Virus record (IMG/VR): IMGVR_UViG_3300030108_000061
Reading direction: 5' to 3' (one strand)
DNA length: 64,000 bases
DNA from: an uncultured virus (IMG/VR IMGVR_UViG_3300030108_000061)
Lineage: Duplodnaviria; Heunggongvirae; Uroviricota; Caudoviricetes
Part shown: in pieces, positions 11,467-38,070 of the stretch
Position numbering within the stretch: the stretch's first letter is position 1
How the letters are laid out: the number at the start of each line of letters is the position of its first letter
Made by a program: the position numbers and the translations under genes
Notes under the pieces: model-generated
What the model was told of the DNA's origin: nothing
The model's input: the letters and a program-made list of their open reading frames with translations, nothing else
Databases searched by the model: none

Positions 11467-14400
11467 CTATCCGAATAAATCAATATCAAATACTTCTCCA
11501 AGAATAGTTCCACCAAGTGTTTGTGTAAGATCTGTAGTAAGTATCTTGCCTATTAAAGAACCAAAACCTACAGAAGTTGCATAGTCCTCTTTTAAAGTTG
11601 CTAAATCTAATTCTGTATCAGCACGAAGTTGTGCCTCTGCCAAGTTCATAAAACGAGTTTTTTCATTTTCAGAGGCAGTCCAAGCCCATTCCATATTGTC
11701 AGAATAATATTGCCACAAATTATTATACGCATCACGAGATACACCTAATAGTGACTCTGCATTTATTTCATTTGCTCTGTTAACAGCCTCTGTAGCTGCA
11801 GTTGCAATTTGCCTACGCCACGTTGCGTTAGCCTGATCAATTACTAAACGATTAGTAGCATTAAATTGTTCTCGTTGATTATTTATTTCAGTGTTAAATC
11901 TTTCAACTACGTTTGTTTGTCCTGCATTAAACTGAGCCTGTGCATTAGCTTGAGATGCATTAAACTGTGCAGTTTGATTAGCTAGGCTTGCAAAAAACTG
12001 ATCTGTTTGATTTTGTGAACTTGCATTAAACTGTGCAGTAGCATTCATAGCTGCTTGATCGGTAAACAAAGATTGTATACGTTGTTGTGCCTGAAATAAT
12101 TCTGTTTGTTGTTTATTAGATAAGTTAGCCATATCCATTTGCAAAAAGTTCTGTGCATTTTGTACAGCAGCTTGTTGTCTATTAGATAAATTAGCCATGT
12201 CAAGATTTGCAAGTGCAGCAGCCTCTGCCATAACCATAGCTTGACTATTACTTAGATTAGCTAGATCTACACTATTAGTAATACGGGCATTTTCTAATGC
12301 TATCTGTTGCTCTGCAGTAAAGTTCATATTTGCTACGTCACTAACTTTAGCTGCATTAGCTACACGTGATTGAAATGCTTGGTCAAACTCTTGACCTATA
12401 AACTGTGCTCTTTGTTGTGCTGCAAGCATAGCACGTTGCTGACGATTTGACAAGTTCTGTTGTTCAAAACTTGCAGTTACAGATGCATCAGCTTGTGCAA
12501 TAGGCAAAGCAGATTCCATAGCTGCTTGTACAAGTGCTTGCCCTGCTATACTACTAGCACCTAATCCTCGTGCTGCCATTTGTGCACTTACTGCTCTCAT
12601 TGCACCAGCAGCCCATGCAGGGGTAGCACCGCCTTCAAAGTCCTGCATAAGACCTTCTAGCTGCCCTTGTACGGTAGCTTTTTGACTTGGCATAGCTTGT
12701 GCAGCTTGCACTTGTTCCGTAAACTTAGCTGCTTTCTCTGCGTCTGCAGCACCTGTTATAAGCTCACCACTTTGTATCTCACGAGTAACAGGATTATTTA
12801 TTAGTGTAGCTGTACCCTGTGCAGCCTCTAATCCTGTTATACTTGAATCCGTTTGTTGAGCAGCCCCCACTCGTGCTTGGTCACTAACAGTGCCTTGTGC
12901 AGCCTGTGTTCCTTCAGCAACATCTGCAACTGCACCTGCAACTGTAGTTGTACCTGCAAGTGTAGTTCCTGTAGCTGTAGGCATACCTGCTTGAGTAGTT
13001 CCTGCTAATGCAGTGGGAACAGCAGCAGCCCCCGATACTTGACCAGAACGTGGATCTATAAACTGCCCTGCTTCCATTGTTGTTTTAACTGGTACAACTG
13101 TAGCACCTACTGGTAAACCTGGAGTTACAGCTTGTAATGCAAATACATCTTCTAAAGAACCTGATTCAGGAAGAGTTTGTGGTGGTATATATTGTTGACC
13201 AACAGGAGTAGGATCAGGAGTACCGCCAGATTGAAACTTTTGAACCATACCACCTTGAGCCATTTGCATAGCCTTTTGATTGTACATATCCATCTTTTGT
13301 TTTTTATCAGGATTATTATTAAGATAATCATTAAATCCAGACATGTCACCTTGATATCCTAAACTACCTGCAATTTTTTGCATTGCCTGTGGTTTAAATC
13401 CACCAAAAGATTGTGTCATTGGCATAGTTTGTTGATTTTGTTGTTGCATGTTTGAAACCATCCCACCTTGTTGATATTGAAATGTTGGCGTATATCCAGT
13501 TTGTATAGGTATGGTAGGATTATAGTTATAAGAACTTGCTTGCCCTACTACACCAGTAGATATTTGAGGCACATTAAATTGAATATTACTAGGAGTAAAA
13601 CCCATATTTTGTTGTAGCTGATATGTTCCAGTATTTGGATTAACAGCAGGTCCAGTAAATTGAGGTTGAGTTACATTTGGAGACTGATATGTAAAACCAC
13701 TAGGAATTGGTTGTGTAGTCATTTGTTGTATGGGCATAGTTTGTGTTTGAGGTGTAACTGGTGCCACATTAGATACAGGAGTGTCCACTATATTTTGTTG
13801 AGGTTGAATTTCTTGTTGTTCAACCTGATCGACAGAACTAATAATATTTTCTACTGGATCAAATACATCCTCTACATTTTCCTCAGAGTCTAAAAAATCT
13901 GGTTCTGTTTCACTTATAGGCTCTACTGTTTCTGTAGTTTCTATAGTTTCTACAGGATCAGTAATTGTTTCTTCTACAACTCCTGTTTGTGTTCCTATGT
14001 TTTCTTGATGAAAAGAACTTAATGTATCAGCTACCTTTTCATTAGTTTCAAGTCCTTGATTATGTCTTAATGTAGCAATTGTATCTTGTATTGTTATTGA
14101 ACCATCATTATTAAAATCATATTGATCTATTTCATCTGCAGATATTTTATCTAAACCAACAATATCTTTTTGTATTTTTTCTACCATTGCCTTAGAAGAA
14201 AGCTCTGGACTATTTTCTATAAAATTACTAAAGGCACTCGTTATCTTATTATTTATTTCTTCTGTCTGCCCAAGGTTTTTAAAGCCTCTTAATACGTTTA
14301 CAGTATCTCCAATTCCAATGCTACCATCACCATTTATATCATAAATAGATAATTGATCTGTAGGTATTTCTTTTAATCCAACTATATGTTCTTGTAGCTT

Positions 14401-14775
14401 TTTAAGAAAAGCAGATTTAACTTCAGGATCTGCTGAAGGTGGTACTTTTGTTATTGTATCATTTTCTACAATGTATCCTTTTTGTGTTAAAGAATCTGCT
14501 ACCTCTCTCATATTTTGAGTTATTTTAGTGCCTTCAGGAATATCTAATCCTGCAGTAATATATGCCTGTGCATTAGCACGTTGCGCAGATGGTGTGCCAA
14601 GATCGGCTTCTGTTAAATTAGTAAAATTACCTTGTGCTTGAGATTTTCTAAATTGATCTCCTGCCTTTAAACTAGCAAGGAAATCATTAGGAGCATCTAC
14701 ACTAATAGTATTTCCAGTAGGTAGTGTATATGTGTAACTATTTAGTATAGTTCCTATGCCGTATTCATTTTCCAT
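11467..14775 (-). CDS. Internal virion protein with Q/A/N-rich coiled-coil C-terminus and two dockerin-like repeats
   Basis: Repeated (D)MANLSNxQQ and AQFNA units; YDINGDGSIGIGD and YDFNNDGSITIQD. Confidence 0.7.
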   Translation of the reverse strand: MENEYGIGTILNSYTYTLPTGNTISVDAPNDFLASLKAGDQFRKSQAQGNFTNLTEADLGTPSAQRANAQAYITAGLDIPEGTKITQNMREVADSLTQKGYIVENDTITKVPPSADPEVKSAFLKKLQEHIVGLKEIPTDQLSIYDINGDGSIGIGDTVNVLRGFKNLGQTEEINNKITSAFSNFIENSPELSSKAMVEKIQKDIVGLDKISADEIDQYDFNNDGSITIQDTIATLRHNQGLETNEKVADTLSSFHQENIGTQTGVVEETITDPVETIETTETVEPISETEPDFLDSEENVEDVFDPVENIISSVDQVEQQEIQPQQNIVDTPVSNVAPVTPQTQTMPIQQMTTQPIPSGFTYQSPNVTQPQFTGPAVNPNTGTYQLQQNMGFTPSNIQFNVPQISTGVVGQASSYNYNPTIPIQTGYTPTFQYQQGGMVSNMQQQNQQTMPMTQSFGGFKPQAMQKIAGSLGYQGDMSGFNDYLNNNPDKKQKMDMYNQKAMQMAQGGMVQKFQSGGTPDPTPVGQQYIPPQTLPESGSLEDVFALQAVTPGLPVGATVVPVKTTMEAGQFIDPRSGQVSGAAAVPTALAGTTQAGMPTATGTTLAGTTTVAGAVADVAEGTQAAQGTVSDQARVGAAQQTDSSITGLEAAQGTATLINNPVTREIQSGELITGAADAEKAAKFTEQVQAAQAMPSQKATVQGQLEGLMQDFEGGATPAWAAGAMRAVSAQMAARGLGASSIAGQALVQAAMESALPIAQADASVTASFEQQNLSNRQQRAMLAAQQRAQFIGQEFDQAFQSRVANAAKVSDVANMNFTAEQQIALENARITNSVDLANLSNSQAMVMAEAAALANLDMANLSNRQQAAVQNAQNFLQMDMANLSNKQQTELFQAQQRIQSLFTDQAAMNATAQFNASSQNQTDQFFASLANQTAQFNASQANAQAQFNAGQTNVVERFNTEINNQREQFNATNRLVIDQANATWRRQIATAATEAVNRANEINAESLLGVSRDAYNNLWQYYSDNMEWAWTASENEKTRFMNLAEAQLRADTELDLATLKEDYATSVGFGSLIGKILTTDLTQTLGGTILGEVFDIDLFG

Positions 14776-15236
14776 TATCTAGTTCCTAACCAAACAAAGC
14801 CAAACAAAAAGCCAACACAACACAAAAATAAAAGGATACCCGATGTCCATTCAATAATTGCTTGTTTGATTTCCATTTGCCTGTGTTCATGTTCTCTCTT
14901 TTGTTTTCTTAAATCTGCTTCTATCTCTAATATTTCTTGCCATTTAGAAGGTCCATACATAACTGATATATAATCTTTCAATTCTTTTCTCATGGACTCA
15001 GCCTTTTGTTTAGCTGCAAATATTTCCATAGCCTGTGATTCAATACCACCACCTAATGCTTTATACCAAGGTGGTTTTTGGTTTTGTCTATCTGCAAAAT
15101 CTAGATCAGCTATAGCACCAGCCCACTTAGCCATAGTGCCACCCATGTCTTGCAGGTCTTTGCCAACCTGTATGCCTTTTTTTAGTGTGTTAAAGGCAGC
15201 AGTAGCACCTGCAATAGCCGTTATGGGATCTATCAT
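14775..15236 (-). CDS. Hypothetical protein with C-terminal transmembrane segment
   Basis: MIDPITAIAGATAAF N-terminus; hydrophobic C-terminus. Confidence 0.7.
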   Translation of the reverse strand: MIDPITAIAGATAAFNTLKKGIQVGKDLQDMGGTMAKWAGAIADLDFADRQNQKPPWYKALGGGIESQAMEIFAAKQKAESMRKELKDYISVMYGPSKWQEILEIEADLRKQKREHEHRQMEIKQAIIEWTSGILLFLCCVGFLFGFVWLGTR

Positions 15237-15438
15237 CTTCTCTCTATAATTCTATCTAGTTTTGCGTCTAGAGCCTCCAGNNNNNNNNNNTAGTCATATA
15301 GTCACGAGCCATTTCTTCTCGTGTTTTATTTAGTAGGACTTGCATACGTTGTGTTTCTGTGTGTTGGCTACGGATAACCCAACCTACTATACCAAGTAGG
15401 CCAGTTAGTCCAGCACTCCATAGCAACTCCATTTCCAT
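15233..15438 (-). CDS. Small membrane-anchored coiled-coil protein interrupted by the assembly gap (not in ORF track)
   Basis: MEMELLWSAGLTGLLGIVGWVIRSQHTETQRMQVLLNKTREEMARDYMT-[N gap]-LEALDAKLDRIIERR*. Confidence 0.6.
15281..15290. other. Scaffold gap (10 N); probable junction between two related phage genomes
   Basis: N run; the sequence to the right is gap-free to the window end and contains its own copies of the genes on the left. Confidence 0.9.
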
Positions 15439-15439
15439 C

Positions 15440-15763
15440 TTACCAAGGTACTTCTTTTATTTGTGCAGTTATAGGTGGGTTTTTAAGTAAATTTATTCTA
15501 CTAGCTATACTGTTTTCTACGTTTGCAATGTATTCATCACCTAAAATATTTTTTATCCACCCAACTACATCTGATTCTTTTAAATCAGCAAAAGCTATAA
15601 AAGAGTCACCTTCTTTTAAATCTGAAATTAAATCTGAAGTTTTGCTTGAATAATTATCTGAATCTACTCCTTCACATTGCCAAGATATTTTAGTTACAAA
15701 GTTTTCTTTTGGGGTTTGTAAAACATAAAGTCTTTTTACTCCCCATGTATAAGTTATAGCCAT
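15440..15763 (-). CDS. Tail-fiber-associated small protein
   Basis: MAITYTW...FIAFADLKESDVVGWIK...PW pattern typical of genes following marine phage tail fibers. Confidence 0.6.
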   Translation of the reverse strand: MAITYTWGVKRLYVLQTPKENFVTKISWQCEGVDSDNYSSKTSDLISDLKEGDSFIAFADLKESDVVGWIKNILGDEYIANVENSIASRINLLKNPPITAQIKEVPW

Positions 15764-15765
15764 GT

Positions 15766-16077
15766 TTATGCTCCTGCCTCAATCATAGCTTTGTAGGCCG
15801 TTTTAACTGAGTCTGTCCATGCTGCATTAGCTATAGCTTGCACACTTGCATCCTCACCTGAGATGTCTGTAGCTGTATGTGTCCATGCACCATTTTCATT
15901 TTGTGTAGAATTAAAAGGCACTAGCACATGCCTGTGAAAGCTACGGCTGATTTCTGTTTTTGCGCCATCTGCACCCTCTTCCATAATTACATTAGCTTGG
16001 CGAACATGGATGTTCCATTTGTTTGCTACTTCTATTCTATCGTATTCTATCTCTTTTGTTATGTCGCCTTGTGCCAT
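15766..16077 (-). CDS. Putative tail fiber assembly chaperone
   Basis: EISRSFHRHVL...DISGEDASVQAIANAAWT; directly after the tail fiber; RBS AGGAGG. Confidence 0.65.
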   Translation of the reverse strand: MAQGDITKEIEYDRIEVANKWNIHVRQANVIMEEGADGAKTEISRSFHRHVLVPFNSTQNENGAWTHTATDISGEDASVQAIANAAWTDSVKTAYKAMIEAGA

Positions 16078-16125
16078 TGTTACCTCCTTTGGCTTGGACT
16101 GTCCGACCCAATGCTATGCAGTGAG

Positions 16126-19707: not shown

Positions 19708-19711
19708 TGTT

Positions 19712-22150: not shown

Positions 22151-22153
22151 GGA

Positions 22154-23098: not shown

Positions 23099-23121
23099 TT
23101 TATTTCCTTAGATCAAGCTAA

Positions 23122-23145: not shown

Positions 23146-23152
23146 AAAGTTT

Positions 23153-25940: not shown

Positions 25941-25952
25941 GTATATAGCAGA

Positions 25953-28181
25953 TTACTTACGTGCTGCTATGCCACGATTCTTGGGGGTAACTTTTTTCTT
26001 TTTAGATCTACTTACAAGACCACCTTCTTTAAAACCATAACCTCCTACGTATCCTTTACCTGCCATTTGCCCTGCTTGAACTGCTCTTTTTTGTCTATCA
26101 GCATCAATACGATCAGCTACAGCCCTTGCCTGTGCTGCAGATGCTTGTCCTCCTGCTACAGATTTTTGAGTTAGTGCTGCATTTTGTCTTGCTCTTGTTA
26201 TATCTGCAGCAGATGTTCTGTCCCTATCTGTTCTACCTCTTTCACCAAAATCTATGGGGGCTGTTGGTGCTGATGGTCCTGCTGGTGCAGGAGTAAAGCT
26301 ATCTATACCTGCAGGTTCTGTTGCAAATGTTGGTGGTGGTGCGACAGGTGTTGCAGTAGCTGCAGGTGGTGCTACAGTTGTTGGAGTAAATCCTCTATCT
26401 GTTTCTTGTCTTGCACGTATAGTTCTTTCAAATTTATCTATCTCATAGTTAGAATAGCCTTCTGCTTCTAAATCTGCTTTAGTATATGTGCCTTTTATGC
26501 TTGCTAGTCTAGCTGCAGCACTTGCTATATCTTCTTCTTTTTGCGCTGTAGATGGTGTTGTTTCATCAACAGTAGTTGCAGTAGCTGCAGGTGGCGCAGT
26601 AAGATCTAAACTAATAGGATCAAATCCTCTAATAGATGTTTCTCCATAGAACTCAGGTTCTGTAGGTTTACCTGCTGTAGCTACCACTGTTTGTAAAGAT
26701 GCCTGTACAGCATCAGCATCAGCACTTTGCAAACTACCTATTACAGAGGTAGTAGGAACACCTAATACTTGAGGTCTAATTGGAGTACCTGCCTCTATAC
26801 CTGCTTTTAAAATATCAGATACGGGTCTACCCATCTCATAATCAGCCACTGTTTGCATAGCTCTAGGCAGTAGTGATCCTTTAGGATCAAACCCTTCATC
26901 TGTAGTAATTTTTATAACACCCTCATTCTTAGCAGTTCCATCTTTTTCATTATTATTCTCATCTGATGCATATTCAATAGCAGCAGTTGTTGCTGCCTCT
27001 GTATCTTCTTTATTTAAACTTAATGCACTTGAAACATCTTTAATTACATCATTTATTAATCCAATAGCAGCCATTCCAAGGCCACCACCTTTTTCTGTTT
27101 TTTCTTTTAATGTAGCTAATTCTTCTTTCAAATCATCTAGCTTACCAGCATCTTTCATTTTGTTTACAAAAGTTTGATCATTTTTTATTTTATCTTGTAA
27201 TTTTTCAAGCGTGTTTATTTTATTCATACGCATCATAGCTGCAGAGGCTAATCCAAAAGCAGGATTAATTACACTAGCAATAGCTACAAATACATTTCCT
27301 ACAGAGCTATTAATCTTTCCTACTTCGTTTACTATTTCTTCTGCACTTGCTGCATCGTAATCAAAAGGCTTTGGTGGGGGAAGTGGATCACGATCATTAT
27401 CATCTCGAACACTTGTAGTAGGTGTTGTAGTAGGATCAGTTGTTACATCATCAGTATCGTCTGATATTTCATCTCCCTCTTGATAAGGTATATAACCATC
27501 TGGAATTGGCGTTATAGGATTGCCTTTATAAAAAGTAAACTTTCTTATATCGCCAGTTTCTGGATTGTAGTACTCTACTTCGTAATAATCTAAAAGTTGA
27601 TTTGCTGTAACTACTGGCTTTGGAGATCCTGTAACTGTTTCATAATTTACACCTTGTTCTACAAATGCAGGTCTGTATCCTGATGTAGTTGTCTGCCCTG
27701 TATTATAAGTTATAGGTCTAAAAGAACTTGCAGGGGGAGTATATGTAGGAATATTTGCAGGTGGATTTGAATACACAGAGGGTCTAGTAATTAATGTACC
27801 TGCTTGCGCTTTAACTACCCCACCAGTATATTTTTTCTTAGGCTTTTGTTTTGGCTCTCCTATAATAATTAAATCAGCCATATCAAACGGAAGATCATCA
27901 GGTATAATAGCCTCATCAGAATTACCCATCTGACCCATAGCTTCCATCTTTTTTAAGCCCATCTTAGCATCTTGTCTTAACTGCATTAATTTATCAAGAC
28001 CAATATAACGAACTACATCTTCTGGAAAAACAAACTCACCTTCACTTATCATAGCAGGTATATCATCACGTACACCTTTTTTAGTTCCCCCTATAGGAAC
28101 TTTATTACCAGACACTTCATCTATTTCACCACCCTCATCTTCAAGGCCACCTTTACGAAATAAATCTAATTGCTGTTCCAT
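25953..28181 (-). CDS. Head-module protein of unknown function (conserved N-terminal domain, low-complexity remainder)
   Basis: DDIPAMISEGEFVFPEDVVRYIG domain; located between portal and scaffold; P/T/A-rich C-terminal half. Confidence 0.7.
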   Translation of the reverse strand: MEQQLDLFRKGGLEDEGGEIDEVSGNKVPIGGTKKGVRDDIPAMISEGEFVFPEDVVRYIGLDKLMQLRQDAKMGLKKMEAMGQMGNSDEAIIPDDLPFDMADLIIIGEPKQKPKKKYTGGVVKAQAGTLITRPSVYSNPPANIPTYTPPASSFRPITYNTGQTTTSGYRPAFVEQGVNYETVTGSPKPVVTANQLLDYYEVEYYNPETGDIRKFTFYKGNPITPIPDGYIPYQEGDEISDDTDDVTTDPTTTPTTSVRDDNDRDPLPPPKPFDYDAASAEEIVNEVGKINSSVGNVFVAIASVINPAFGLASAAMMRMNKINTLEKLQDKIKNDQTFVNKMKDAGKLDDLKEELATLKEKTEKGGGLGMAAIGLINDVIKDVSSALSLNKEDTEAATTAAIEYASDENNNEKDGTAKNEGVIKITTDEGFDPKGSLLPRAMQTVADYEMGRPVSDILKAGIEAGTPIRPQVLGVPTTSVIGSLQSADADAVQASLQTVVATAGKPTEPEFYGETSIRGFDPISLDLTAPPAATATTVDETTPSTAQKEEDIASAAARLASIKGTYTKADLEAEGYSNYEIDKFERTIRARQETDRGFTPTTVAPPAATATPVAPPPTFATEPAGIDSFTPAPAGPSAPTAPIDFGERGRTDRDRTSAADITRARQNAALTQKSVAGGQASAAQARAVADRIDADRQKRAVQAGQMAGKGYVGGYGFKEGGLVSRSKKKKVTPKNRGIAARK

Positions 28182-28187
28182 TATAAG

Positions 28188-28412
28188 TTACTCACTTTTT
28201 AAAACCTCATCACGCAGTAATTTTAATCTACGTAGTTGATATATTGCACCTTGTGCTCTATACATTATTTGAATATTGTCTGTCTGTTCTATATTACGAT
28301 GCTGCTGTTCAATAAGCATATCTAAATATTTACTGAACTGGTCCCATTGCTTCTGGTTGCTCACCAGCCCCTTCAGCTTGTTGAGGTGCTCCTTGTTGTT
28401 GTTCATTACCAC
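28188..28412 (-). CDS. Small conserved post-portal protein
   Basis: YRAQG....LRRLK.LRDEV pattern; overlaps the portal 3' end. Confidence 0.65.
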   Translation of the reverse strand: MVMNNNKEHLNKLKGLVSNQKQWDQFSKYLDMLIEQQHRNIEQTDNIQIMYRAQGAIYQLRRLKLLRDEVLKSE

Positions 28413-30468
28413 TAAATCCTTGTTCTTGCGGTGTTGGTGCTTGTCCTGTGCCTATAGTGCCACCCCCTGCTCCTGTCGGGTCTGCAGGGTCAGCACCTGC
28501 TGGTGCTTGTTCAGGTTGCTGTTGTTGAAAACCTTTCATTAGTTCTGCTTGTAATGCAGCTTCATCCATATTATTAGTTACTTTATCTGGGTCAAGATCA
28601 AGAGACTTTGCAATCTCTCTAATAATATATTGAAACTTAGCAAATGGTGCTAAAGCTGGACTAGAGGCAATTTGCATAAACTGCATTAATCTTTGACTAC
28701 GTACTTCATTAGCCATAAGACTTTCTGTACCACGTGCCTTTACTTCTAAATCCCCTTTTATTTCTGGGTCGTAATCAAATTGCATATTAAATCTAAATAA
28801 ACCCTCACCAAGAGGGCGTAATAAATAGTCATCTACATTTTTAATTACGTTTTTTATACCGCCTTGAGCAGCACCCATAAGCATACTGATACCAGAAGCA
28901 GTACGGCCCACACCACTGACGCCTGTTTGACCATGTGCAAAAGATGGGAATCCAGTTGATTCATCTGCTAATACCCTCGCTTTATCAAATAGTTGCAAAT
29001 TTTCTGCGGCAACATTAGGAAACTTTGTGCCAAAGATAGCTTGACCTGGAGCACCACCTTGTCTCCTAAATATCTTGCCTGGATATACACTAAGGTCTTG
29101 GCCTGGGACTAAATTAGTTTCATCTACCTCTATAAGAAGATTACCTGATAGCACAGCATTATCTACCGCCATACGCATGAACCCATTCATAAGAGTCTGT
29201 GTATCATCCATATTTTCTGCTATGCCTACCCCAAAGAATGAATAAGGATTTAATTCATACGGTGCAGCCATATATGGGATATTAGCAGGTTTAAATGGAT
29301 TAAGAACCATACGCAATAATTTGCCGTTACAAATCCAAATATTCGCTTGTAACTCATCTACATCTTGTAAGTCATCTGGTATATCTACGCCTTGCTCTAA
29401 AAGCATAGCAGTATCTGCTGTACCCCAATATTCTAAAACCTCATAGCGATATGTGCCATAGTCAGACATATAATCTTCTAGGTCATTTTCCCAATATTCT
29501 TTTTGATAATTTTCACCTAGTTCTATTGCTTCTTCAATAACTGTAGGTCTAAAATAAGGTCTGCGCTTTAATGCACGTAATTGTGAGCGAGACATCTTAT
29601 GCCTTTCAATTACATACTGTGCCTCTTCTATATTAATAGCATCAGGATCAGGATAAAAGTTCCACACAGAAACATGTGATACTTGTGGTATAGTTTTTAT
29701 TAAAGGAGAATATTCACCTGTTTCATCCCAATTAGGATATTCTTTATCAATAGCAAATGGCCCCTTCATCACACCAGTTCCAAATAGCGCCATTTCAAAC
29801 GCTGTACTACGTAAATGTTTACTAGCTCCAGATTCCTCTAGTTGATCGTGTATCTTTTTTTGCATCATTTTAGCCGCCACCATAGCAGGGCTAAATGTAA
29901 TTGAAGTAGGTGTTTTACCTACGCCTTCACGTAATCCTTCAATATCACCTAGTTTATCTTTTAGTGGCCCTAAACTTTCTAATAAAGTTTTTTGTGTTGC
30001 TCCTGCTGGCAAATCATTGCCATCTCCCTTAAATCCATATGGGCTAACAGGATCATTTATAGTATTCTCTTTTAATTGTTCTGGTTCTTTAGGGTCGAAG
30101 TTAACATCTGCAACTACGCCATCAGGTAATTCTGTTGGATCTACTGTTAATGGAAACTTTTGACTTGCAAATAATACATCTACAATTTGACCATATGCTG
30201 CAAGTGTTTTTGTTTTAGTTACCTTAATAAATACTCTTGACCTTTCTGCCTCTGTAAACTGAACGTCAGGGCCATATAAACCTCTATAATTTCTATAAGC
30301 TCTTAGCCAACGATGCTCGTCTTGTTGCCTAGATGTTTCTGCACGATTATATCGTTCCATAACATATGGAATAATATTAGATGTCTCATAGTCCTCTGTA
30401 GCAGAATCCTCACTATCCGCTAAGACAACTGCATCATCCTCTATAAAACCTTGATCATTATCTTCCAT
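28330..30468 (-). CDS. Portal protein
   Basis: RWLRAYRNYRG, SRVFIKVTKTK, FGTGVMKGP and RTASGISML motifs; follows the terminase. Confidence 0.9.
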   Translation of the reverse strand: MEDNDQGFIEDDAVVLADSEDSATEDYETSNIIPYVMERYNRAETSRQQDEHRWLRAYRNYRGLYGPDVQFTEAERSRVFIKVTKTKTLAAYGQIVDVLFASQKFPLTVDPTELPDGVVADVNFDPKEPEQLKENTINDPVSPYGFKGDGNDLPAGATQKTLLESLGPLKDKLGDIEGLREGVGKTPTSITFSPAMVAAKMMQKKIHDQLEESGASKHLRSTAFEMALFGTGVMKGPFAIDKEYPNWDETGEYSPLIKTIPQVSHVSVWNFYPDPDAINIEEAQYVIERHKMSRSQLRALKRRPYFRPTVIEEAIELGENYQKEYWENDLEDYMSDYGTYRYEVLEYWGTADTAMLLEQGVDIPDDLQDVDELQANIWICNGKLLRMVLNPFKPANIPYMAAPYELNPYSFFGVGIAENMDDTQTLMNGFMRMAVDNAVLSGNLLIEVDETNLVPGQDLSVYPGKIFRRQGGAPGQAIFGTKFPNVAAENLQLFDKARVLADESTGFPSFAHGQTGVSGVGRTASGISMLMGAAQGGIKNVIKNVDDYLLRPLGEGLFRFNMQFDYDPEIKGDLEVKARGTESLMANEVRSQRLMQFMQIASSPALAPFAKFQYIIREIAKSLDLDPDKVTNNMDEAALQAELMKGFQQQQPEQAPAGADPADPTGAGGGTIGTGQAPTPQEQGFSGNEQQQGAPQQAEGAGEQPEAMGPVQ

Positions 30469-30480
30469 TAGTTTTCCTTA

Positions 30481-33143: not shown

Positions 33144-33529
33144 TTATTTTTCCCAAAAAACTTAGTAGCTGATCTTACACCAAAACTAGCAGCCACAATA
33201 ACTCCAAGTGTGTATTGATACCACTCTGGCATAGACTCAAGTGCTACAAAACCATTAGCAACTATCTCTCTACCCCAATCTCCTGTAAACACAAGTACAA
33301 GAGGTATTGAAAATAAAATTGTCAGCCACTCGTCTTTCCACGAAGACTGACTTCCTTGTGCCATAATTTTTTCCCAATCAGCCTCAGATGTTGCGGCTGA
33401 CTTCATTATAGTTGCTTTTGCCTCTGCCTCTACAAGTTTAAGATTACTTGCCGCAGCTTGTACATCTGCTTTACCTTTTAACCAACCACCAGCTAGTTCT
33501 GCTATTGGTCCTATTAACGCTTGGATCAT
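33140..33529 (-). CDS. Holin (GTA-type 3TM-like)
   Basis: SWKDEW, MPEWYQY and ASFGVR motifs; TM segments; adjacent to the endolysin. Confidence 0.75.
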   Translation of the reverse strand: MIQALIGPIAELAGGWLKGKADVQAAASNLKLVEAEAKATIMKSAATSEADWEKIMAQGSQSSWKDEWLTILFSIPLVLVFTGDWGREIVANGFVALESMPEWYQYTLGVIVAASFGVRSATKFFGKNK

Positions 33530-33735
33530 AATGCTATTCCTTTTGATTCTTTAGCAAAAGACATTTCTACACACTTAGTAATTACAAAAGAGTCTGGAGT
33601 AGGTTTAGAAACTTCTAGTTTTTGTAATAATACTACCTCTGCAACTTCACACATCTCTTGATTTGGATATAATATTTGATCTGAAGCTACCTTGTGATCT
33701 CCACCTGCAAACATTAATAAAACAATTACATACAT
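33526..33735 (-). CDS. Small protein with hydrophobic N-terminus and two Cys
   Basis: Translationally coupled ORF in the lysis block. Confidence 0.55.
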   Translation of the reverse strand: MYVIVLLMFAGGDHKVASDQILYPNQEMCEVAEVVLLQKLEVSKPTPDSFVITKCVEMSFAKESKGIAL

Positions 33736-33950
33736 TATTTTGTACCTCTATCAGTCTTAGCTTCTTTATTCATCCAGATGCCAAAGCATCCTGTTAAAGC
33801 TCCCATACAAACAGATACAAGTCCTGCTTGTCCATTAGTAGGATCGGGTAAAGACATATACCAATGAACAGATTGATATGTTAATATAGTTACAACTAAC
33901 ATCATTAGTCTTGGAAATATTTTATAGTCATCTATTATTGTACTTGCCAT
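33735..33950 (-). CDS. Small two-TM membrane protein
   Basis: FPRLMM...WYMSLPDPT..QAGLVSV..GA.TG.FGIW. Confidence 0.7.
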   Translation of the reverse strand: MASTIIDDYKIFPRLMMLVVTILTYQSVHWYMSLPDPTNGQAGLVSVCMGALTGCFGIWMNKEAKTDRGTK

Positions 33951-33959
33951 ACTATTTTC

Positions 33960-34190
33960 CTATGCCACAACAAAGTCTACATTGCGTCCCTGTCTAGGAT
34001 ACATTTTGTTTCTATTGTGTGGATGATATGCATATGCATCCTCATACCTATATTTATCTGCTTTTTTATCCATGGCTGTTTTTGAAGCCTCAACTATTTC
34101 TTGTTTAGTTGTAGACTCTGTTGTTTTTGTTTTATTAAAAGGCATTTGTGGCAAAGGCAAATAATCTAATAAACCTGTACTTATATTCAC
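33960..34190 (-). CDS. Hypothetical protein
   Basis: ORF fits the operon spacing. Confidence 0.55.
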   Translation of the reverse strand: MNISTGLLDYLPLPQMPFNKTKTTESTTKQEIVEASKTAMDKKADKYRYEDAYAYHPHNRNKMYPRQGRNVDFVVA

Positions 34191-34193
34191 GGT

Positions 34194-34439
34194 TTAAGTC
34201 CTTCTAAATCTAGCAGTTTTCTTTGCGATCTTTTTAGGTTGAGCCACAAACTGCTTACCTGCCTTCGTGCCTTTTCGTTTGGCTCTTGAAGTAGCTGCAT
34301 ACTCAGCAGCACTGAGAGACTTAATAGCAGCAGTAGGGAGATAACGTTCTCCCGTTTTAGCGCTGGGCTTGCCACTCTTAGTTCTCCACTTTTGTTTAGT
34401 CCAATCCTTTAGACTTTTTTGAGATTTTTTTAGGGCCAT
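34194..34439 (-). CDS. Small basic protein (C-terminal half of DUF5872-like proteins)
   Basis: SQKSLKDWTKQKWRTKSGK....GERYLP..A. Confidence 0.7.
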   Translation of the reverse strand: MALKKSQKSLKDWTKQKWRTKSGKPSAKTGERYLPTAAIKSLSAAEYAATSRAKRKGTKAGKQFVAQPKKIAKKTARFRRT

Positions 34440-34514
34440 TTAACAACAGTCACACTCTGGATTACACTTACGATTAATTAAAGCACACCAAAGTCTTTTT
34501 AAATAACGCATCAT
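34440..34514 (-). CDS. 24-aa Cys-rich micro-ORF (not in ORF track)
   Basis: MMRYLKRLWCALINRKCNPECDCC*; start overlaps the upstream stop and stop abuts the downstream start. Confidence 0.55.
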   Translation of the reverse strand: MMRYLKRLWCALINRKCNPECDCC

Positions 34515-34693
34515 TATTTGTATCCCCCTCCTGCTTTTTTATAAGCAGAGGCCAGCATTTGAGCTTTTCTTGCCGACCACTGCCCAGGTTTACCGCCCTT
34601 GCTGCCAGCTTTTATTCTGGCAAATTGTCTTTTACGCATGGCTGGCTTAGTGTAGTTTCCAGCCTTGTTTACTGTAGATTTACTTTTAGCCAT
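34514..34693 (-). CDS. 59-aa basic protein, DUF5872-like (not in ORF track)
   Basis: NYTKPAMRK...KGGKPGQWSARKAQMLASAYKKAGGGYK. Confidence 0.75.
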   Translation of the reverse strand: MAKSKSTVNKAGNYTKPAMRKRQFARIKAGSKGGKPGQWSARKAQMLASAYKKAGGGYK

Positions 34694-35124
34694 TAAAACC
34701 TCTCGACATACTTAGCTATCTGCGAACAAAAAGGTAATAAAGCTATTGCCATCATTAAGTTTGCACCTGTATGTATTATAGCTATTCTTAGTGTATCGCC
34801 TTTTGGCATACCGTCACTAACGAAAAAACCTGCAAGCCAAATTGTTCCAGTTGTTCCTATGTTTGCTCCAAGCACTGCTGCTATTGCAGCAGGTAAAGGT
34901 AAAGCACCAGAAGCAACTAAAGCTATGATCGCAGTAGTGCTAAGAGAGCTAGACTGCCAAGCTAGGGTCATTGCTATCCCACCTATGAACATATAGATAG
35001 GGTTGCCTAGAAACCATTGCAAGTGTTCTATATTACCCATGTTTTTCATGCCACCACTAAATAATTTTAGTCCTACATAAAAAACAAATAAACCGCCTAA
35101 AGCTTGTATTGGTGGTGATAGCAT
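34693..35124 (-). CDS. Half-size Na+/phosphate cotransporter (NptA/SLC34 family, single repeat)
   Basis: QSSSLST and GANIGTT signature motifs in a hydrophobic 143-aa protein; RBS AGAGGA. Confidence 0.8.
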   Translation of the reverse strand: MLSPPIQALGGLFVFYVGLKLFSGGMKNMGNIEHLQWFLGNPIYMFIGGIAMTLAWQSSSLSTTAIIALVASGALPLPAAIAAVLGANIGTTGTIWLAGFFVSDGMPKGDTLRIAIIHTGANLMMAIALLPFCSQIAKYVERF

Positions 35125-35140
35125 TTCATTTATCCTCTAC

Positions 35141-35302
35141 TTAATATGGTTTCCAGCTTTGTTCACCGTAGATTTTCTGATAAATTTCGCAACGACTTAT
35201 CCCTATATCTTTTAATGCCCTATTTGACATATTTTGCAGTTGCCAATAAGCAACTCTATTTTCTTGTGATTTTTTTAAATAATTATATATTCTTTTTAGC
35301 AT
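35141..35302 (-). CDS. DUF1127 (YjiS-like) small protein, 53 aa (not in ORF track)
   Basis: ...QLQNMSNRALKDIGISRCEI... matches the L..MSD..L.DIG.SR.EI pattern; RBS AAGGAG. Confidence 0.8.
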   Translation of the reverse strand: MLKRIYNYLKKSQENRVAYWQLQNMSNRALKDIGISRCEIYQKIYGEQSWKPY

Positions 35303-35342
35303 TTCTATCTCCTTAATTTGTAAGCCTCAACTTACTAGAGAT

Positions 35343-35387
35343 AGTTATAACATATTTAGTTATAACATAAAATGCACAATGTTGCAA
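35343..35387 (-). promoter_or_regulatory. Promoter-like element with tandem GTTATAAC palindromes upstream of the DUF1127 gene
   Basis: TTGCAA-N17-TATAACTA; ATGTTATAACTA repeated twice with a 15-nt period. Confidence 0.5.
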
Positions 35388-35410
35388 CCCCGTTATGATA
35401 GGATTGCAAC
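35381..35410 (-). terminator. Hairpin after 35435..35950, possible terminator
   Basis: GUUGCAAUCC / GGGUUGCAAC stem on the minus strand; weak U-tail. Confidence 0.35.
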
Positions 35411-35434
35411 TGTTTTAAATTACTATGACCTCAT

Positions 35435-35950
35435 TTAGTCAAAGTTATGGGTTACAGTACCATCACCAAATAGATGTCCTGTTACCATCCAAATAGCATC
35501 AGTGATAGCCACGCAACTTACGTAACCACCAAGAAAACGTCCATCTGCATCTGAGTTTAAAATCAACTGATGGTCTGCGGCAGCAGGTACGTTAAAACCA
35601 TTTGTATCTACATTTTCATTAAGAGCAACTGCAGTACCTACATCATCTTTATCCATATGCAAAATTACACCTTGCATAGTATCTGCATCACTTGCAGCAG
35701 AAATAGTGTAGCTATTTGATGTGCCTGTTGTTCCAATATGAAAGTCATAATACAATCCTGCCTCTGCAGCAGGAAGTGTTACCACAATACCTGCAGCACG
35801 ATTCAGAGTAAAAATTGTGCCTGATTCTGCTGCTGTTACTGTTTTAGTTGCATCAGTAAGACTAGTTACTGTTCGTTTCATTGTTGTAAAAGAAATGTTT
35901 GGGTTTTGATAAACCTCAATACCTTCCTCTCGTGTTACTGATAGTGACAT
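35435..35950 (-). CDS. Putative virion decoration/fiber-like protein
   Basis: TKTVTAAESGTIFTL..AAGIVVTLPAA..GL.Y.F beta-rich pattern; RBS AAGGAGG. Confidence 0.55.
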   Translation of the reverse strand: MSLSVTREEGIEVYQNPNISFTTMKRTVTSLTDATKTVTAAESGTIFTLNRAAGIVVTLPAAEAGLYYDFHIGTTGTSNSYTISAASDADTMQGVILHMDKDDVGTAVALNENVDTNGFNVPAAADHQLILNSDADGRFLGGYVSCVAITDAIWMVTGHLFGDGTVTHNFD

Positions 35951-35964
35951 ATATTAAACCCTCC

Positions 35965-36165
35965 TTACACTTTCACCAGCTTATAGCCTTTGGCTTTAGC
36001 TGCTGCACGAATTTTTGCAAGTGTCATCATAGCAGAACCACCTTTTGCGTAACCCTTCTTCTTCATGCCGCCTCGTGCCATACCTTTCTTTTTCATACCA
36101 CCACGAGCCATACCTTTTTTCTTCATGCCTCCACGTGCCATGCCTTTCTTTTTATGCATTGCCAT
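35965..36165 (-). CDS. Small basic repeat protein (KKKGMARGGM)n
   Basis: Three MARGG units plus YAKGG; nucleotide repeats differ at synonymous positions; RBS AAGGAG. Confidence 0.8.
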   Translation of the reverse strand: MAMHKKKGMARGGMKKKGMARGGMKKKGMARGGMKKKGYAKGGSAMMTLAKIRAAAKAKGYKLVKV

Positions 36166-36167
36166 AG

Positions 36168-36851
36168 CTATTCATCTCCTTCGCTATATAAATTATTAAA
36201 CACTCGTTGCGTATCCCAAACGTAATTCACGTCTTCTTTCGAGTGAAATATATTTTGATTGGGCTTAAAATCAGGTGCGCCCTCTCCCATTTCAAACCAT
36301 GCAGGGTGAGTTACTCTCACTCTATTATTGGGTAACGCAACCATGTTACCAGTATATTCCCCTGCATCCAACAACTCAAGGACGTGAGATTGTTTATGTT
36401 GAGCAGGATCATCAGCTACTTCACTATCTGTGTAGTCTACAGTAAAATAATATTTAGCAGGATAGAACTCGTCATCTATCTTGGCAATCCAAGGTGCAGG
36501 AGTTGCACGATCTATTTTATAGACTGAATGCCAGTGGGACATACAGTCCCAAGGTTGCGCTAAATATGTAGGCAATGGCATAGGCCATTGTTCTAGTGGA
36601 GTATCTGCCACCAATGCTGTTAGTGGCATTCTAGCCCACATTGCACCGCCATGCACGTTAGGGCTATCTTCTTCATCGTCAGATTCACAACCTGTAAATA
36701 TGACCTGAAAACTTAATGTTCTGTTTGGCATTGTGGTGACTGCTACCACCATGCAATGTAAAAATTCACCATGATATTCCGACATATTCTTAGTATATTC
36801 ACGGCGTACCCATGCTTTGAAATAGGGTATGTTACTTTGTAGATACGGCAT
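36168..36851 (-). CDS. Conserved hypothetical phage protein (likely start ATG 36851)
   Basis: [32 protein letters not shown] and ALPNNRVR blocks. Confidence 0.7.
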   Translation of the reverse strand: MPYLQSNIPYFKAWVRREYTKNMSEYHGEFLHCMVVAVTTMPNRTLSFQVIFTGCESDDEEDSPNVHGGAMWARMPLTALVADTPLEQWPMPLPTYLAQPWDCMSHWHSVYKIDRATPAPWIAKIDDEFYPAKYYFTVDYTDSEVADDPAQHKQSHVLELLDAGEYTGNMVALPNNRVRVTHPAWFEMGEGAPDFKPNQNIFHSKEDVNYVWDTQRVFNNLYSEGDE

Positions 36852-37137
36852 TCTTTTTATGTTTCCTTCGCAAGTCTGATTTCCCTTGTTTAAAGACATT
36901 GGCTATGGCTGTCTTTCCCATAACTTTAGCACGTTGTTCACCAACTGTCAATATCTGAATCTTTCTTGCATAAGGTTTATTTATTCTTTTTACTTTTGCA
37001 ACTGTAGCTTTTGCATCTGCCATAGTTGCAAACTTAATAGGCACCGTATCTTTAGGGTTTTCGTCTGTATACAGCCTACGTCCAGACCCTTTAGGCTTTT
37101 TACCTGTTCCTACTTTTGGGTCTTTTCTTTTTGCCAT
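36832..37137 (-). CDS. Small basic hypothetical protein
   Basis: [32 protein letters not shown]. Confidence 0.7.
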
Positions 37138-37261
37138 TTTTATTTTTACCTGCAGTGGTTAAAGCTATAGCTACAGCTTGCTTTTGTGGTTTGCCCTCTT
37201 TACGTAACATACTTATATTAGAGCTTATAGTCTTATTACTTTTTCCTTTTTTTAGTGGCAT
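37100..37261 (-). CDS. 53-aa basic protein (not in ORF track)
   Basis: [34 protein letters not shown]..., a pattern common in phage late regions. Confidence 0.7.
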
Positions 37262-37263
37262 TA

Positions 37264-37599
37264 TTAACGTCTTCGTGCTTGAACTCTTTGTCCACCTCTT
37301 GCCCCTCTAAGCATAGCTCTCTGTAAAGCACCAGCCCTACGCCCAAAAGGACTTCTTCTTCTTGGTGTTGGTCTTCCACCACGACTTGCTACTGCACCTG
37401 ATACTCTACCTCTTTGAGCACTTGCTCTATTACCACCAGCAGCTGCCTGTGTTGCTGCTGCTCGCTGTAAAGCCCCTGTTTTTTGCTTATTTGCTGTTGC
37501 TCTAGCTGCTTTTCTTTGGCGTAATGCACCCAACCCAGCAATCTTTTTTCCTCGCATTGAACCTACTGCACGTTTAGTGCGACCTCTTCCTCCAAGCAT
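37264..37599 (-). CDS. Arg/Gly/Ala-rich protamine-like protein
   Basis: 111 aa with no D or E; GALQRA repeated; RBS AAGGAG. Confidence 0.7.
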
Positions 37600-37614
37600 A
37601 GTTTCTCTCCTTAA

Positions 37615-38070
37615 CTATTTATAAAACATGCCACCTTTACGCATGTCATTATTCCCAGACTTCATCATACCACCACGTTTCATGTAGCCCATTTTGTTAC
37701 GCACTGCAGTAGGTAGTTTCTTCAAGCCTTTTTGATCTGCTGTGGGTTTTTTTAATGCGCCACCAGCTTGCATCTCAAAAGGAGCTTTTGGCAAAGTAAC
37801 TTTATCTTTCATTTTTTTATCACGAGCTTTTTGCTGCATAGAGCGTCCAGCTTTAGTAGATTCTTCTGCCATTTCATTCTCAACATCTTTTAGTTGACGT
37901 TTCATATTCTTTAATTCAGTTTTTTCTTCTGCAGATAATTTATCTTTACCTTCTAACTTACGTATCTTAGTTTGTAATTTAACCTTTACACCTGCTAAAG
38001 ATTTAGCGGTCATTGTTGTACCTTTACCTGTAATACTAGATACAAGTTCTACTAAACTTTTCTTTCCCAT
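37615..38070 (-). CDS. Lys-rich protein with three MxxGG motifs
   Basis: MQAGG, MKRGG, MRKGG; RBS AAGGA. Confidence 0.7.
   Translation of the reverse strand: MGKKSLVELVSSITGKGTTMTAKSLAGVKVKLQTKIRKLEGKDKLSAEEKTELKNMKRQLKDVENEMAEESTKAGRSMQQKARDKKMKDKVTLPKAPFEMQAGGALKKPTADQKGLKKLPTAVRNKMGYMKRGGMMKSGNNDMRKGGMFYK

Follow-up and report, generated by a model that had tools for sequence, protein, structure and literature searches.

A Gly-Gly motif concentrated in internal and small late proteins of an HMO-2011-type podovirus probably docks or processes injected proteins

We found that a short motif, in its fuller form hydrophobic-x-x-Gly-Gly-hydrophobic(-Val), is in excess in a marine HMO-2011-type podovirus only in internal/ejection proteins and small basic late proteins; the window analysed is a 64,000-nucleotide stretch from an uncultured virus (IMG/VR IMGVR_UViG_3300030108_000061). 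Sequence comparison places the motif in an unannotated module that also occurs in lambda-like tape-measure proteins, and the motif probably docks or processes injected proteins. A processing signal and a loading signal are both live readings; the one we favour, at a probability of about 40%, is that the motif serves for docking in proteins whose exit is via the portal or tail channel.

Results

A preliminary description of the window had used [FYM]xxGG to link small basic late proteins to the post-portal protein and a large ejection protein, and both the link and all 12 copies that it named are borne out (all features given here lie on the minus strand): FRKGG at residue 8 and FKEGG at 717 of the 742-aa protein (25953..28181); YQQGG at 434, MAQGG at 505 and FQSGG at 514 of the 1102-aa protein (11467..14775); MARGG at 9, 19 and 29 and YAKGG at 39 of the 66-aa protein (35965..36165); and MQAGG at 100, MKRGG at 130 and MRKGG at 143 of the 151-aa protein (37615..38070). 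The next residue, described as mostly M/L/A, is M, L, A or V in 10 of the 12, and the background matches mentioned there, MRLGG in RNR and MPRGG in polymerase, were also found. KYTGG (residues 117-121 of the 742-aa protein), listed alongside them, is present, but its aromatic residue is one place closer to GG.

Whether these copies exceed chance had been left for testing; the motif is in excess over a composition-matched background in the window and in four relatives. Over 74 ORFs totalling 16,333 aa, with the diverged second copy past position 51,900 excluded, [FYM]xxGG occurs 21 times against 9.39 +/- 3.12 expected from within-protein shuffles that keep composition, and one of 300 shuffles was as high. 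The four named proteins, picked once the motif had been seen, hold 12 copies against 1.44 +/- 1.15 expected (0/300), the three MARGG copies of the 66-aa protein counting as one tandem repeat, and the strict form [FYM]x[KRQE]GG[ML] occurs 9 times against 0.26 expected (0/300). A group test free of that choice of proteins, using [FYMLIVW]xxGG[FYMLIV] across 69 of the 74 ORFs, gave 7 matches against 1.70 expected in internal/ejection and post-portal proteins (3/500 shuffles as high) and 7 against 1.08 in small late ORFs (0/500), where one membrane protein accounts for two of the seven. The remaining virion and packaging proteins had 1 against 3.24, and plus-strand early proteins 1 against 2.01; the excess is confined to internal/ejection and small late proteins. 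For the four relatives, counts of [FYM]xxGG[MLVIFA] were 10 against 2.24 expected, 9 against 2.58, 8 against 2.13 and 6 against 2.10, reached by 0, 0, 1 and 7 of 300 shuffles, respectively.

The 742-aa protein, characterised by its ORF, an AlphaFold2 model and N-terminal conservation, has no matching family in Pfam or PHROG scans; it lies next to the portal protein (28330..30468; Pfam SU10_portal, E 3.2e-29; PHROG 332/1216), which gives the context and is a candidate receptor. It begins with a tape-measure-like module, continues with a small beta domain (199-235) and a hydrophobic and low-complexity middle, and ends in a basic C-terminal tail; the first 237 residues are conserved in CRP-1 and HMO-2011. 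The conserved module itself, residues 1-125 (27807..28181), reads QLDLF-RKGGL-EDEGG ... RDDIPAMISEGEFVFPEDVVRYIG-helix ... KYTGGVV, and was matched by 3,243 representative proteins at E<=0.001, with invariant columns and logos. Ahead of the RDDIPAMISEGEFVFPEDVVRYIG core (27999..28070; invariant columns, alignment and hhalign) stands FRKGGL (site A, 28143..28160), and behind it KYTGGVV (site B, 27813..27833).

This bracket is conserved: of the 150 best metagenomic hits to the 742-aa N-terminus, 138 have the core, DDIPAxLSEGEFV, between motif copies, with 196 strict copies 30-50 residues ahead of it and 134 at site B, 70-89 residues past it. At site A, 95% of the 138 carry F at -3 and 96% carry L at +1, and the remaining GG dipeptides in these homologues have no such flank pattern. 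Because the arrangement of motif, core and motif is conserved, core and motif appear to work together. At the other end of the protein, FKEGGLVSR is followed by KKKK (26007..26033), then by the terminal NRGIAARK (25956..25979; KRGLAARK in relatives), and 60 of the 138 homologues have hydrophobic-xxGG within their last 45 residues, typically as FxKGGLASRKK. Variable extensions, mostly without a known family, lie on either side of the module in homologues; those in front span 100-950 residues, with FNKGG at the junction.

The same three-part layout, hydrophobic-xxGG-hydrophobic, PAxLxxGEFV with a helix, and the motif again, is repeated in siphophage tape-measure proteins, and was found in lambda gpH (733-783), T1-like phages and mycobacteriophage Douge. 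The post-portal protein is therefore most plausibly an ejection protein of a podovirus that resembles tape measures and carries variable extra domains. The bracketing of the DDIPAMISEGEFV segment by the motif, already pointed out in the preliminary description, is thus kept from these marine phages to lambda-type tape-measure proteins. Alignment of the 742-aa-type module (A1) with the tape-measure type (A3) by hhalign gave 75% probability (E 2.6e-5, 34 columns); homologues of the latter type have the core in 13/13 and at least one flanking motif in 10/13. The gpH 745-785 stretch was matched in tape-measure genes in 1,047 of 50,697 phage records, three of which were inspected by eye. No Pfam model spans the module, lambda gpH included.

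Other motif-bearing proteins have copies at conserved places. The 1102-aa internal/ejection protein, 62% identical to HMO-2011 gp25 over residues 457-1078, carries YQQGGMV (13456..13476) where its N-terminal extension meets the conserved core, MNQGGIV being the CRP-1 counterpart; the conserved helical N-domain of that core (13222..13407) ends in the tandem motif MAQGGMVQKFQSGG, and all 31 sequences found via a MAKGGMV scan keep its M49, A50, G52, G53, M54, V55 and G62. The 66-aa basic protein carries an array, MARGGMKKKG three times and then YAKGGS (36034..36141), whose like occurs in viral contigs with a period of 10-11 residues. In the 151-aa basic protein, MQAGGA, MKRGGMM and MRKGGMF occupy the C-terminal third (37624..37773), and the family signature LPxxVRNKMGY-MxxGGM is present in CRP-1, CRP-345 and viral contigs. 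Two further internal proteins carry FNFGGFL (396-aa protein, N-terminus, 10711..10731), retained in the window's second, diverged copy, and VRRGGLVS (1165-aa protein, 7982..8005). A related GL-hydrophobic-[SA]RR tail ends the 173-aa internal protein (EGGLMSRRM, 10740..10766), kept behind an acidic linker in 6/6 family members (GGLMSRRM or TGLMARRK), and the 68-aa protein has a GL-hydrophobic-[SAG]R variant (MGLLSR, 11362..11379), kept in 5/6 members, the freshwater relative differing. Motif positions match in HMO-2011, CRP-1, CRP-345 and a freshwater relative, and non-homologous proteins of one gene module have in common terminal versions preceded by flexible linkers, acidic or basic.

AlphaFold2 gave pLDDT <50 over core residues 42-49 of the 742-aa protein, and its confidence was similarly low for a relative of tape-measure type; the alignments had 48 and 14 rows, and their shallowness may alone account for this. 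No solved structural relative of the core was found. Among the 67 window ORFs scanned (nine short ORFs left out), no peptidase family was matched, a hit to M15 cell-wall peptidase being below its cut-off, in agreement with the earlier remark that no canonical protease is evident. Family scans and AlphaFold2 confidence speak against the core as a protease or folded reader domain; the suggestion that the N-terminal segment is one meets with no Pfam or PHROG family and pLDDT <50.

Discussion

We propose that the motif is a short linear element by which proteins kept in the portal or tail channel dock; these proteins would exit ahead of the DNA. Two copies would act around the PAxLxxGEFV-plus-helix core of the 742-aa protein, the tape-measure counterpart lying near the channel-exit end, and more single or tandem copies in the 1102-, 396- and 1165-aa proteins, the related 173-aa tail and the small basic late proteins. 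The Gly-Gly turn would expose a pair of hydrophobic anchors, to be inserted into a shared receptor or into one another; this would tether otherwise disordered proteins to the portal axis, package them together during assembly and let them out first at infection. Because the flanks of site A are constrained and those of other GG dipeptides are not, a one-sided protease site would account for the sequences less well than a binding or structural element. The module is predicted to be disordered alone and is unresolved in lambda virions (PMC12617516), as expected if it orders only on a partner. In mature virions, the same cryo-EM work resolves gpH 818-849 in contact with gpI, the plug protein, to which it is bound; gpH ends in MRDGGLF (842-848), and therefore one motif copy is, on this account, intact in a docked segment. 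The restriction of the excess to internal/ejection and small late proteins, repeated in four relatives, and precedents for channel-stored, partly unfolded cargo and small ejected proteins speak for docking. Against it, tape measures sit in tails and the podoviral proteins in heads, so that a single homologous receptor is not obvious, and the position of copies at domain junctions, together with the T5 cut two residues from an invariant GG, favours processing. Among the publications listed, no virion proteomics was found for any HMO-2011-type phage, which makes even the 742-aa protein, along with the small basic ones, a putative virion component.

The motif may instead mark processing, the main rival and a serious possibility at odds well below even, in which multi-domain ejection and tape-measure proteins would be cut during assembly at or just upstream of hydrophobic-xxGG-hydrophobic, with the neighbouring GEFV module, a protease of the host or some phage enzyme that escaped recognition as catalyst, releasing N-terminal extensions, C-terminal fragments and short basic peptides. 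Copies do fall where variable extensions meet conserved cores (FNKGG before the module, YQQGGMV in the 1102-aa protein), and the family looks polyprotein-like, with extensions on either side of the module. The T5 tape measure pb2 is cut after R1127 (PMC10038345), in the context FVPR|AEGGMMYPG, two residues upstream of an invariant GG; R-A-x-G-G is kept in 5/5 Demerecviridae tape measures, down to 37% identity, and pb2 has GG dipeptides at only 5 places in 1,219 residues. The glycine-rich junction motif of TP901-1 Tal is likewise processed (PMC11409707), and lambda gpH is cut in a Gly-rich region adjoining its first motif copy, where F733|A734 would yield 12.5 kDa and 79.8 kDa, although that site is unmapped and its adjacency approximate. 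Against processing, no peptidase family was matched beyond the sub-threshold M15 hit, Arg precedes the T5 cut where the equivalent residue here is F, M or Y, the C-terminal copy of gpH is uncut in virions, such strong conservation beyond GG is unusual for a cleavage site, and a cut in the 173-aa tail would take off just six to nine residues.

A recurrent flexible hinge or turn of Gly-Gly between hydrophobic residues, suited to extended storage in a narrow channel, with refolding or oligomerisation after ejection and no dedicated reader, is rather unlikely: the settings are low-complexity, basic and Met- and Gly-rich, the motif region is predicted to be disordered and the motif is present in many unrelated small viral proteins, where it could be a by-product of Met/Gly/Lys-rich composition, but composition-keeping shuffles still give 0/300, positions and flanks are conserved over thousands of homologues while other GG dipeptides lack the pattern, and the three-part layout with the GEFV core is fixed across distant phage families. 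We consider it very improbable that the 742-aa N-terminal DDIPAMISEGEFV domain is itself the enzyme or reader of [FYM]xxGG in other proteins, substituting for a prohead protease in the post-portal slot. The conserved bracket would suit such a role, and the lambda and T5 tape-measure cuts have no known catalyst; yet the core is just about 25 residues and one helix with no confidently predicted fold, it has neither a peptidase family nor a solved relative, and the same module lies inside tape-measure proteins, which play no part in head maturation.

The docking motif that we favour can be set beside several known systems. Adenovirus and ASFV core proteins are processed at Gly-Gly by a dedicated cysteine protease, with a hydrophobic P4 and a cut after GG, and they share with our phage a short GG motif common to several internal, partly basic virion proteins. 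The window phage differs in having no match to such a protease in the 67 ORFs scanned and its hydrophobic residue one place farther from GG, which tells against the adenovirus-type register raised in the preliminary description, as does the sole mapped cut in a related context (T5), upstream of GG. Encapsulin cargo-loading peptides are short, contain Gly and Leu followed by basic residues, and sit C-terminally after a flexible linker; like our motif they are terminal peptides common to unrelated cargo proteins, but the window motif is also internal, in tandem and in tail proteins, and binding to an HK97-fold capsid protein would be hypothetical. MuF/SPP1 gp7-type post-portal head proteins and 'polyvalent' injected proteins are encoded directly after the portal gene, and share this slot and the joining of a conserved anchor region to highly variable domains; the 742-aa protein has no Phage_Mu_F domain, its anchor being a tape-measure-type module.

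Internal proteins at the portal/tail channel that are partly unfolded and ejected first, some of them small, are described for crAss001 C1 (gp45) and T7 gp6.7/gp7.3; the likeness is one of role. Pfam crAss_CARG1 produced no hit even at E<=10, and the Atlas lead scored only 0.83. TP901-1/Tuc2009 Tal shows a glycine-rich motif at a tail-protein domain junction processed during assembly (PMC11409707), but this motif, NGGGNSGGGD, is purely Gly/Ser/Asn without hydrophobic anchors and the protein is a tail-associated lysin. In T5 pb2 the mapped assembly-time cut has an invariant GG directly downstream, after which come hydrophobic residues and a GE..VV element; the -3 residue is Arg rather than F, M or Y, and the downstream element bears a metallopeptidase signature, its kinship with the GEFV core being judged by eye alone. 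The lambda gpH C-terminal region (gpHC) and its T1-like (Drexlerviridae) counterparts have FATGGF ... VHRGEFVF-helix ... YATGGY and a terminal MRDGGLF, in a protein that is expelled before the DNA and whose module is unresolved or disordered in the virion. In lambda the module is close to the C-terminal end of a protein of the tail lumen, whereas in the short-tailed window phage it is at the N-terminus, or behind N-extensions, of the product of a portal-adjacent gene, with a longer spacer from first motif to core that holds an additional EGG.

A diglycine motif is enriched in internal and small late proteins of an HMO-2011-type phage

From about 39.4 kb down to 6 kb the minus strand carries the late genes, starting with small basic proteins, then lysis genes, small and large terminase, portal and the 742-aa post-portal protein (25953-28181, minus strand), and continuing through a 296-aa scaffold-like protein, the major capsid protein, adaptor, nozzle and fibre to a terminal block of internal proteins of 153, 1102, 68, 173, 396 and 1165 aa. 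The portal matches Pfam SU10_portal (E 3.2e-29); the 296-aa protein, whose PHROG carries no function, is assigned as scaffold-like by position. The same gene order is found in the HMO-2011 and CRP phages. Of the 14 phage records that the 742-aa protein matched in tblastn, 13 carry the name of Puniceispirillum phage HMO-2011 or a roseophage CRP isolate. The window polymerase has a match to the DnaJ_CXXCXGXG insert (E 6e-4, under its cut-off); a DNA polymerase with such a DnaJ-type insert is described as a hallmark of the HMO-2011-type group, itself reported to be dominant and widespread among marine viruses (PMC9038755). Judged by synteny, similarity and the polymerase insert, the window is an HMO-2011-type podovirus.

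Several other features of this layout were evident. The window exceeds one genome length, its ends being diverged copies of the same genes (9-5106 versus 51808-56905, 88% DNA identity; 10565-12166 versus 62368-63998, 73%), with RNR ORFs of 409 and 585 aa in the two copies; these ends could be a tandem pair of related phage genomes or a chimeric assembly. A 74-aa ORF (28188-28412, minus strand) overlaps the portal gene at its 3' end in a different reading frame and is kept in HMO-2011 (annotated as gp50) and CRP-1 (unannotated), and is probably a real small gene. Very basic small proteins stand in a row at the start of the late operon (36832-38398, minus strand): a 102-aa DUF6321 protein (E 2.2e-14), the 151-aa protein, a 111-aa Arg-rich and a 101-aa Lys-rich protein. 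Further along, a 143-aa ORF (34693-35124, minus strand) matches the Na+/Pi cotransporter family (PF02690, E 1.8e-16) and may be an auxiliary metabolic gene fragment.

All 12 copies of [FYM]xxGG, or more fully hydrophobic-xxGG-hydrophobic, that the preliminary description had located in four proteins (the 742-aa protein, the 1102-aa internal or ejection protein, and small basic late proteins of 66 and 151 aa) were found in place. Representative motif peptides are FKEGGLVSRSKKKK, the MARGGMKKKG array and the GGLMSRRM tail. We compared counts with within-protein shuffles that keep the composition of each protein, using 74 ORFs with the second, diverged window copy left out. Across these ORFs the motif occurs 21 times against 9.4 expected, a count reached in 1 of 300 shuffles, and the strict form [FYM]x[KRQE]GG[ML] occurs nine times against 0.26 (0 of 300). 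The four named proteins hold 12 copies against 1.4 expected (0 of 300), a comparison in which the proteins were selected post hoc and three copies form a single tandem repeat; for this reason, the ORFs were also grouped by genome position, using a broader pattern. The internal and post-portal proteins then gave seven copies against 1.7 expected (3 of 500 shuffles), and the small late ORFs seven against 1.1 (0 of 500), two of these seven sitting in a membrane protein and probably unrelated to the rest. Other virion and packaging proteins had one against 3.2 expected, and early proteins one against 2.0. The position groups added copies absent from the earlier list: the 396-aa protein has FNFGGFL N-terminally, and the 1165-aa protein has VRRGGLVS.

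The motif is conserved in HMO-2011, CRP-1, CRP-345 and the freshwater phage MW202701. Their post-portal proteins (gp49, gp49 and gp62 in the first three) carry the motif before and after a DDIPAxLSEGEFV core, their large ejection proteins have MAKGGMV-type copies, and small ORFs upstream of terminase have MMRGGM-type repeats. The proposed link between post-portal, large ejection and small basic late proteins is supported, and the excess of the motif seen in the window recurs in four relatives.

The motif brackets a conserved module in the post-portal protein

Residues 1-125 of the 742-aa protein, which contain the DDIPAxLSEGEFV core, matched 3,243 representative proteins at E ≤ 0.001, 746 of them at E ≤ 1e-30. 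The core is present in 138 of the best 150 of these 3,243, and in the same 150 strict motif copies lie on either side of it, 196 at 30-50 residues before and 134 at 70-89 after. At the first site F occupies position -3 in 95% and L position +1 in 96% of the 138 homologues, a pattern that is missing from the flanks of their other GG dipeptides. The module is either N-terminal or sits behind N-extensions of about 100 to 950 residues, from which it is separated by FNKGG. C-terminal parts are variable, and 60 of the 138 end in FxKGGLASRKK or KRGLAARK-type tails; in the unrelated 173-aa family, a GGLMSRRM or TGLMARRK tail follows an acidic linker in six of six members, and five of six members of the 68-aa family retain a comparable GLL[SAG]R.

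The 742-aa protein starts with MEQQLDLF (residues 1-8; 28158-28181, minus strand), which resembles the bacterial sliding-clamp-binding pentapeptide QL[SD]LF, so that beta-clamp binding is a candidate reading of it. Across the 138 homologues, Q, M and F stand at the matching place in 87%, 89% and 95%, respectively. Of the 150 best homologues, the 39 longest were scanned with Pfam: LysM was above cut-off in two, two gave a sub-threshold match and 35 gave nothing. The LysM peptidoglycan-binding domain is joined to the module in homologues P0143 and P0031, a fusion that fits putative exposure to the cell wall after ejection. The 1102-aa protein carries, in an N-terminal extension (residues about 145-240; 14000-14400, minus strand), two EF-hand or dockerin-like DxNxDGxI repeats, whose EF-hand_7 match (E 2.3e-5, under cut-off) hints at calcium binding by this ejection protein.

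The module resembles part of tape-measure proteins

Scanning viral contigs for DNA encoding MAKGGMV gave at least 120 loci. Their reading frames include a conserved ejection-protein N-domain whose motif copy sits around residue 50, numerous small basic proteins, tandem arrays repeating every 10-11 residues, and tape-measure proteins, among them locus L080 (PhageMin_Tail in Pfam, E 7.7e-27) and loci L077, L014 and L010 (tape-measure PHROG matches). A family of viral proteins of about 65 aa (PHROG 2423; L022, L032, L059 and L060) starts with a QAVAIA helix, continues into a basic linker containing MAKGGMV and closes with RFKGVF, whose terminal aromatic is reminiscent of the tails of outer-membrane proteins or PDZ ligands.

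The tape-measure proteins have (S/T)D(S/T)IPAMLxPGEFV 5-25 residues downstream of the motif, and behind it a helix and, in many cases, a second motif copy. Against sequences of solved structures, such a module matched gp16 of mycobacteriophage Douge (two copies, E 0.01) and lambda gpH (E 0.63); in neither structure are the matched residues resolved. In gpH the order is FATGGF (733), VHRGEFVF, YATGGY (778) and a terminal MRDGGLF (842). A joint alignment showed that marine and tape-measure modules share their layout: the 742-aa module has the core P-A-x-hydrophobic-x-x-G-E-[FY]-V and the helix with conserved Gly and Leu, and an hhalign comparison of the two alignments gave moderate support (75% probability, E 2.6e-5, 34 columns). 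The motif lies on both sides of the core in the window (FRKGGL before, KYTGGVV after) as in lambda, Shelby, Motto and Strym; at least one flanking copy is kept in 10 of 13 tape-measure-type homologues, and the full bracket in two T1-like phages and one Vibrio phage. The bracketing of this domain, first noted in the window protein, therefore extends to its 138 homologues, lambda gpH and the T1-like and Vibrio phages, and on these alignments the motif-bracketed module is real, old and widespread.

A query with gpH 700-853 matched 1,047 of 50,697 phage records, most only over 745-785, placing the module among the best-conserved tape-measure pieces in isolated phages. No Pfam model covers it (the lambda C-terminal model spans gpH 627-701 only), and none of the papers listed by full-text literature searches mentions it. 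The 742-aa protein is best called a putative tape-measure-like ejection protein of a short-tailed phage; its gene position and hydrophobic segments, with the LysM domains in two of 39 homologues, lead us to infer that it leaves via the tail before the DNA. It thereby gains a candidate identity in a phage group whose internal proteins have so far had no assigned functions, and the signature would flag likely injected proteins, including small basic ones often missed by gene callers.

A protease or folded reader in the post-portal slot is not supported

The preliminary description had noted that prohead proteases often occupy this slot and proposed that the N-terminal domain reads the motif. Pfam and PHROG scans of the 742-aa protein returned no family, and residues 1-125 had no Pfam family even at E ≤ 10 and no usable relative among solved structures. 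AlphaFold2, with 48 aligned homologues, modelled the protein at a mean pLDDT of 63.6, with the invariant core falling under 50 at residues 42-49 and nothing folded within residues 1-190; a tape-measure-type module was likewise modelled at low confidence. Within the first 250 residues, high confidence is confined to a small beta-hairpin-rich mini-domain, YYEVEYYNPETGDIRKFTFYKGNPITPIPDGYIPY (residues 199-235; 27477-27587, minus strand; pLDDT about 95). As had been stated, no canonical protease is evident: among 67 window ORFs scanned with Pfam (nine short ORFs left out), the one peptidase match was an M15 cell-wall peptidase under cut-off. With no family and no confident fold for this module, and no peptidase family above cut-off in the 67 scanned ORFs, neither the protease nor a folded reader is supported, and it is very improbable that the 742-aa N-terminal domain is itself the motif reader.

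Other identities fared no better. A prohead or maturation protease has neither peptidase family, fold nor solved relative behind it, and M23 and JAB Gly-Gly peptidases were not found among the scanned ORFs. Adenain, a C5-type cysteine protease, cuts at (M/L/I)-x-G-G, with its hydrophobic residue at P4, two before GG; here that residue stands three before GG and the 67 scanned ORFs matched no such protease, so the adenovirus analogy does not carry over. The 742-aa protein has no Phage_Mu_F domain in Pfam, setting aside a MuF or SPP1 gp7 head protein. An ESM Atlas search returned only unnamed viral clusters and a crAss cargo lead scoring 0.83; the lead was rejected when crAss_CARG1 (crAss cargo protein 1, PF25725) had no match at E ≤ 10.

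Docking and processing as readings of the motif

Capsid targeting like that of encapsulin cargo-loading peptides, which are terminal and bind the inner face of an HK97-fold shell protein, was one candidate reading of the motif. Our main reading, held at a probability of roughly 0.4, is that the motif is a docking element of proteins that leave through the channel. GG is constrained on both flanks, terminal copies behind flexible linkers are common to unrelated internal proteins, and the module is predicted to be disordered on its own by AlphaFold2 and is unresolved in lambda virions. In the lambda structure, gpH 818-849 is described as resolved intact on the plug protein gpI, and the terminal MRDGGLF falls within this segment (PMC12617516); crAss001 and T7 offer precedents for channel-stored, partly unfolded cargo and small ejected proteins. 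A complex prediction of module residues 1-130 with the motif-bearing ejection-protein N-domain, run without controls, gave a score of 0.02 (mark 0.32), which weighs on neither side of the question of binding. We infer that the small basic proteins are located in the virion; the literature matches listed include no virion proteomics or structure for HMO-2011-type phages. That the motif is a hinge with no dedicated reader seems quite unlikely.

Docking is compatible with a possible, if somewhat doubtful, role of the motif in marking processing sites, and both can hold. Copies lie at the junctions of variable domains, and the T5 tape measure is reported to be cut after R1127 (PMC10038345), two residues before its GGMM; R-A-x-G-G is present in five of five diverse T5 relatives, and the T5 protein has only five GG dipeptides. 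A glycine-rich junction is also processed in TP901-1 Tal (PMC11409707), and about 14 kDa is removed from the glycine-rich C-terminal region of lambda gpH, with site and catalyst reported as unknown (PMC12617516); a cut before A734 would release a computed 12.5 kDa. Against this, no protease was found in the 67 window ORFs scanned, T5 has Arg, not F, M or Y, directly ahead of its cut, and the last lambda copy is uncut.

A broader form of the processing idea, which we consider unlikely, makes motif-core-motif the long-sought element that determines how tape-measure and ejection proteins mature in tailed phages at large, with the cut just upstream of hydrophobic-xxGG-hydrophobic, as in T5 (R1127-AEGGMM); kinship of the T5 element to the GEFV core was judged by eye. 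If it were true, the marine post-portal, ejection and tandem-motif basic proteins would be polyproteins yielding domains and short basic peptides, their cutting module-dependent and maybe self-catalysed. Lambda gpH would likewise be cut at F733-A734 into gpH* of 79.8 kDa and gpHC of 12.5 kDa, a concrete and testable prediction, since the gpH* cut occurs in the same unresolved, glycine-rich part of gpH that holds the module.
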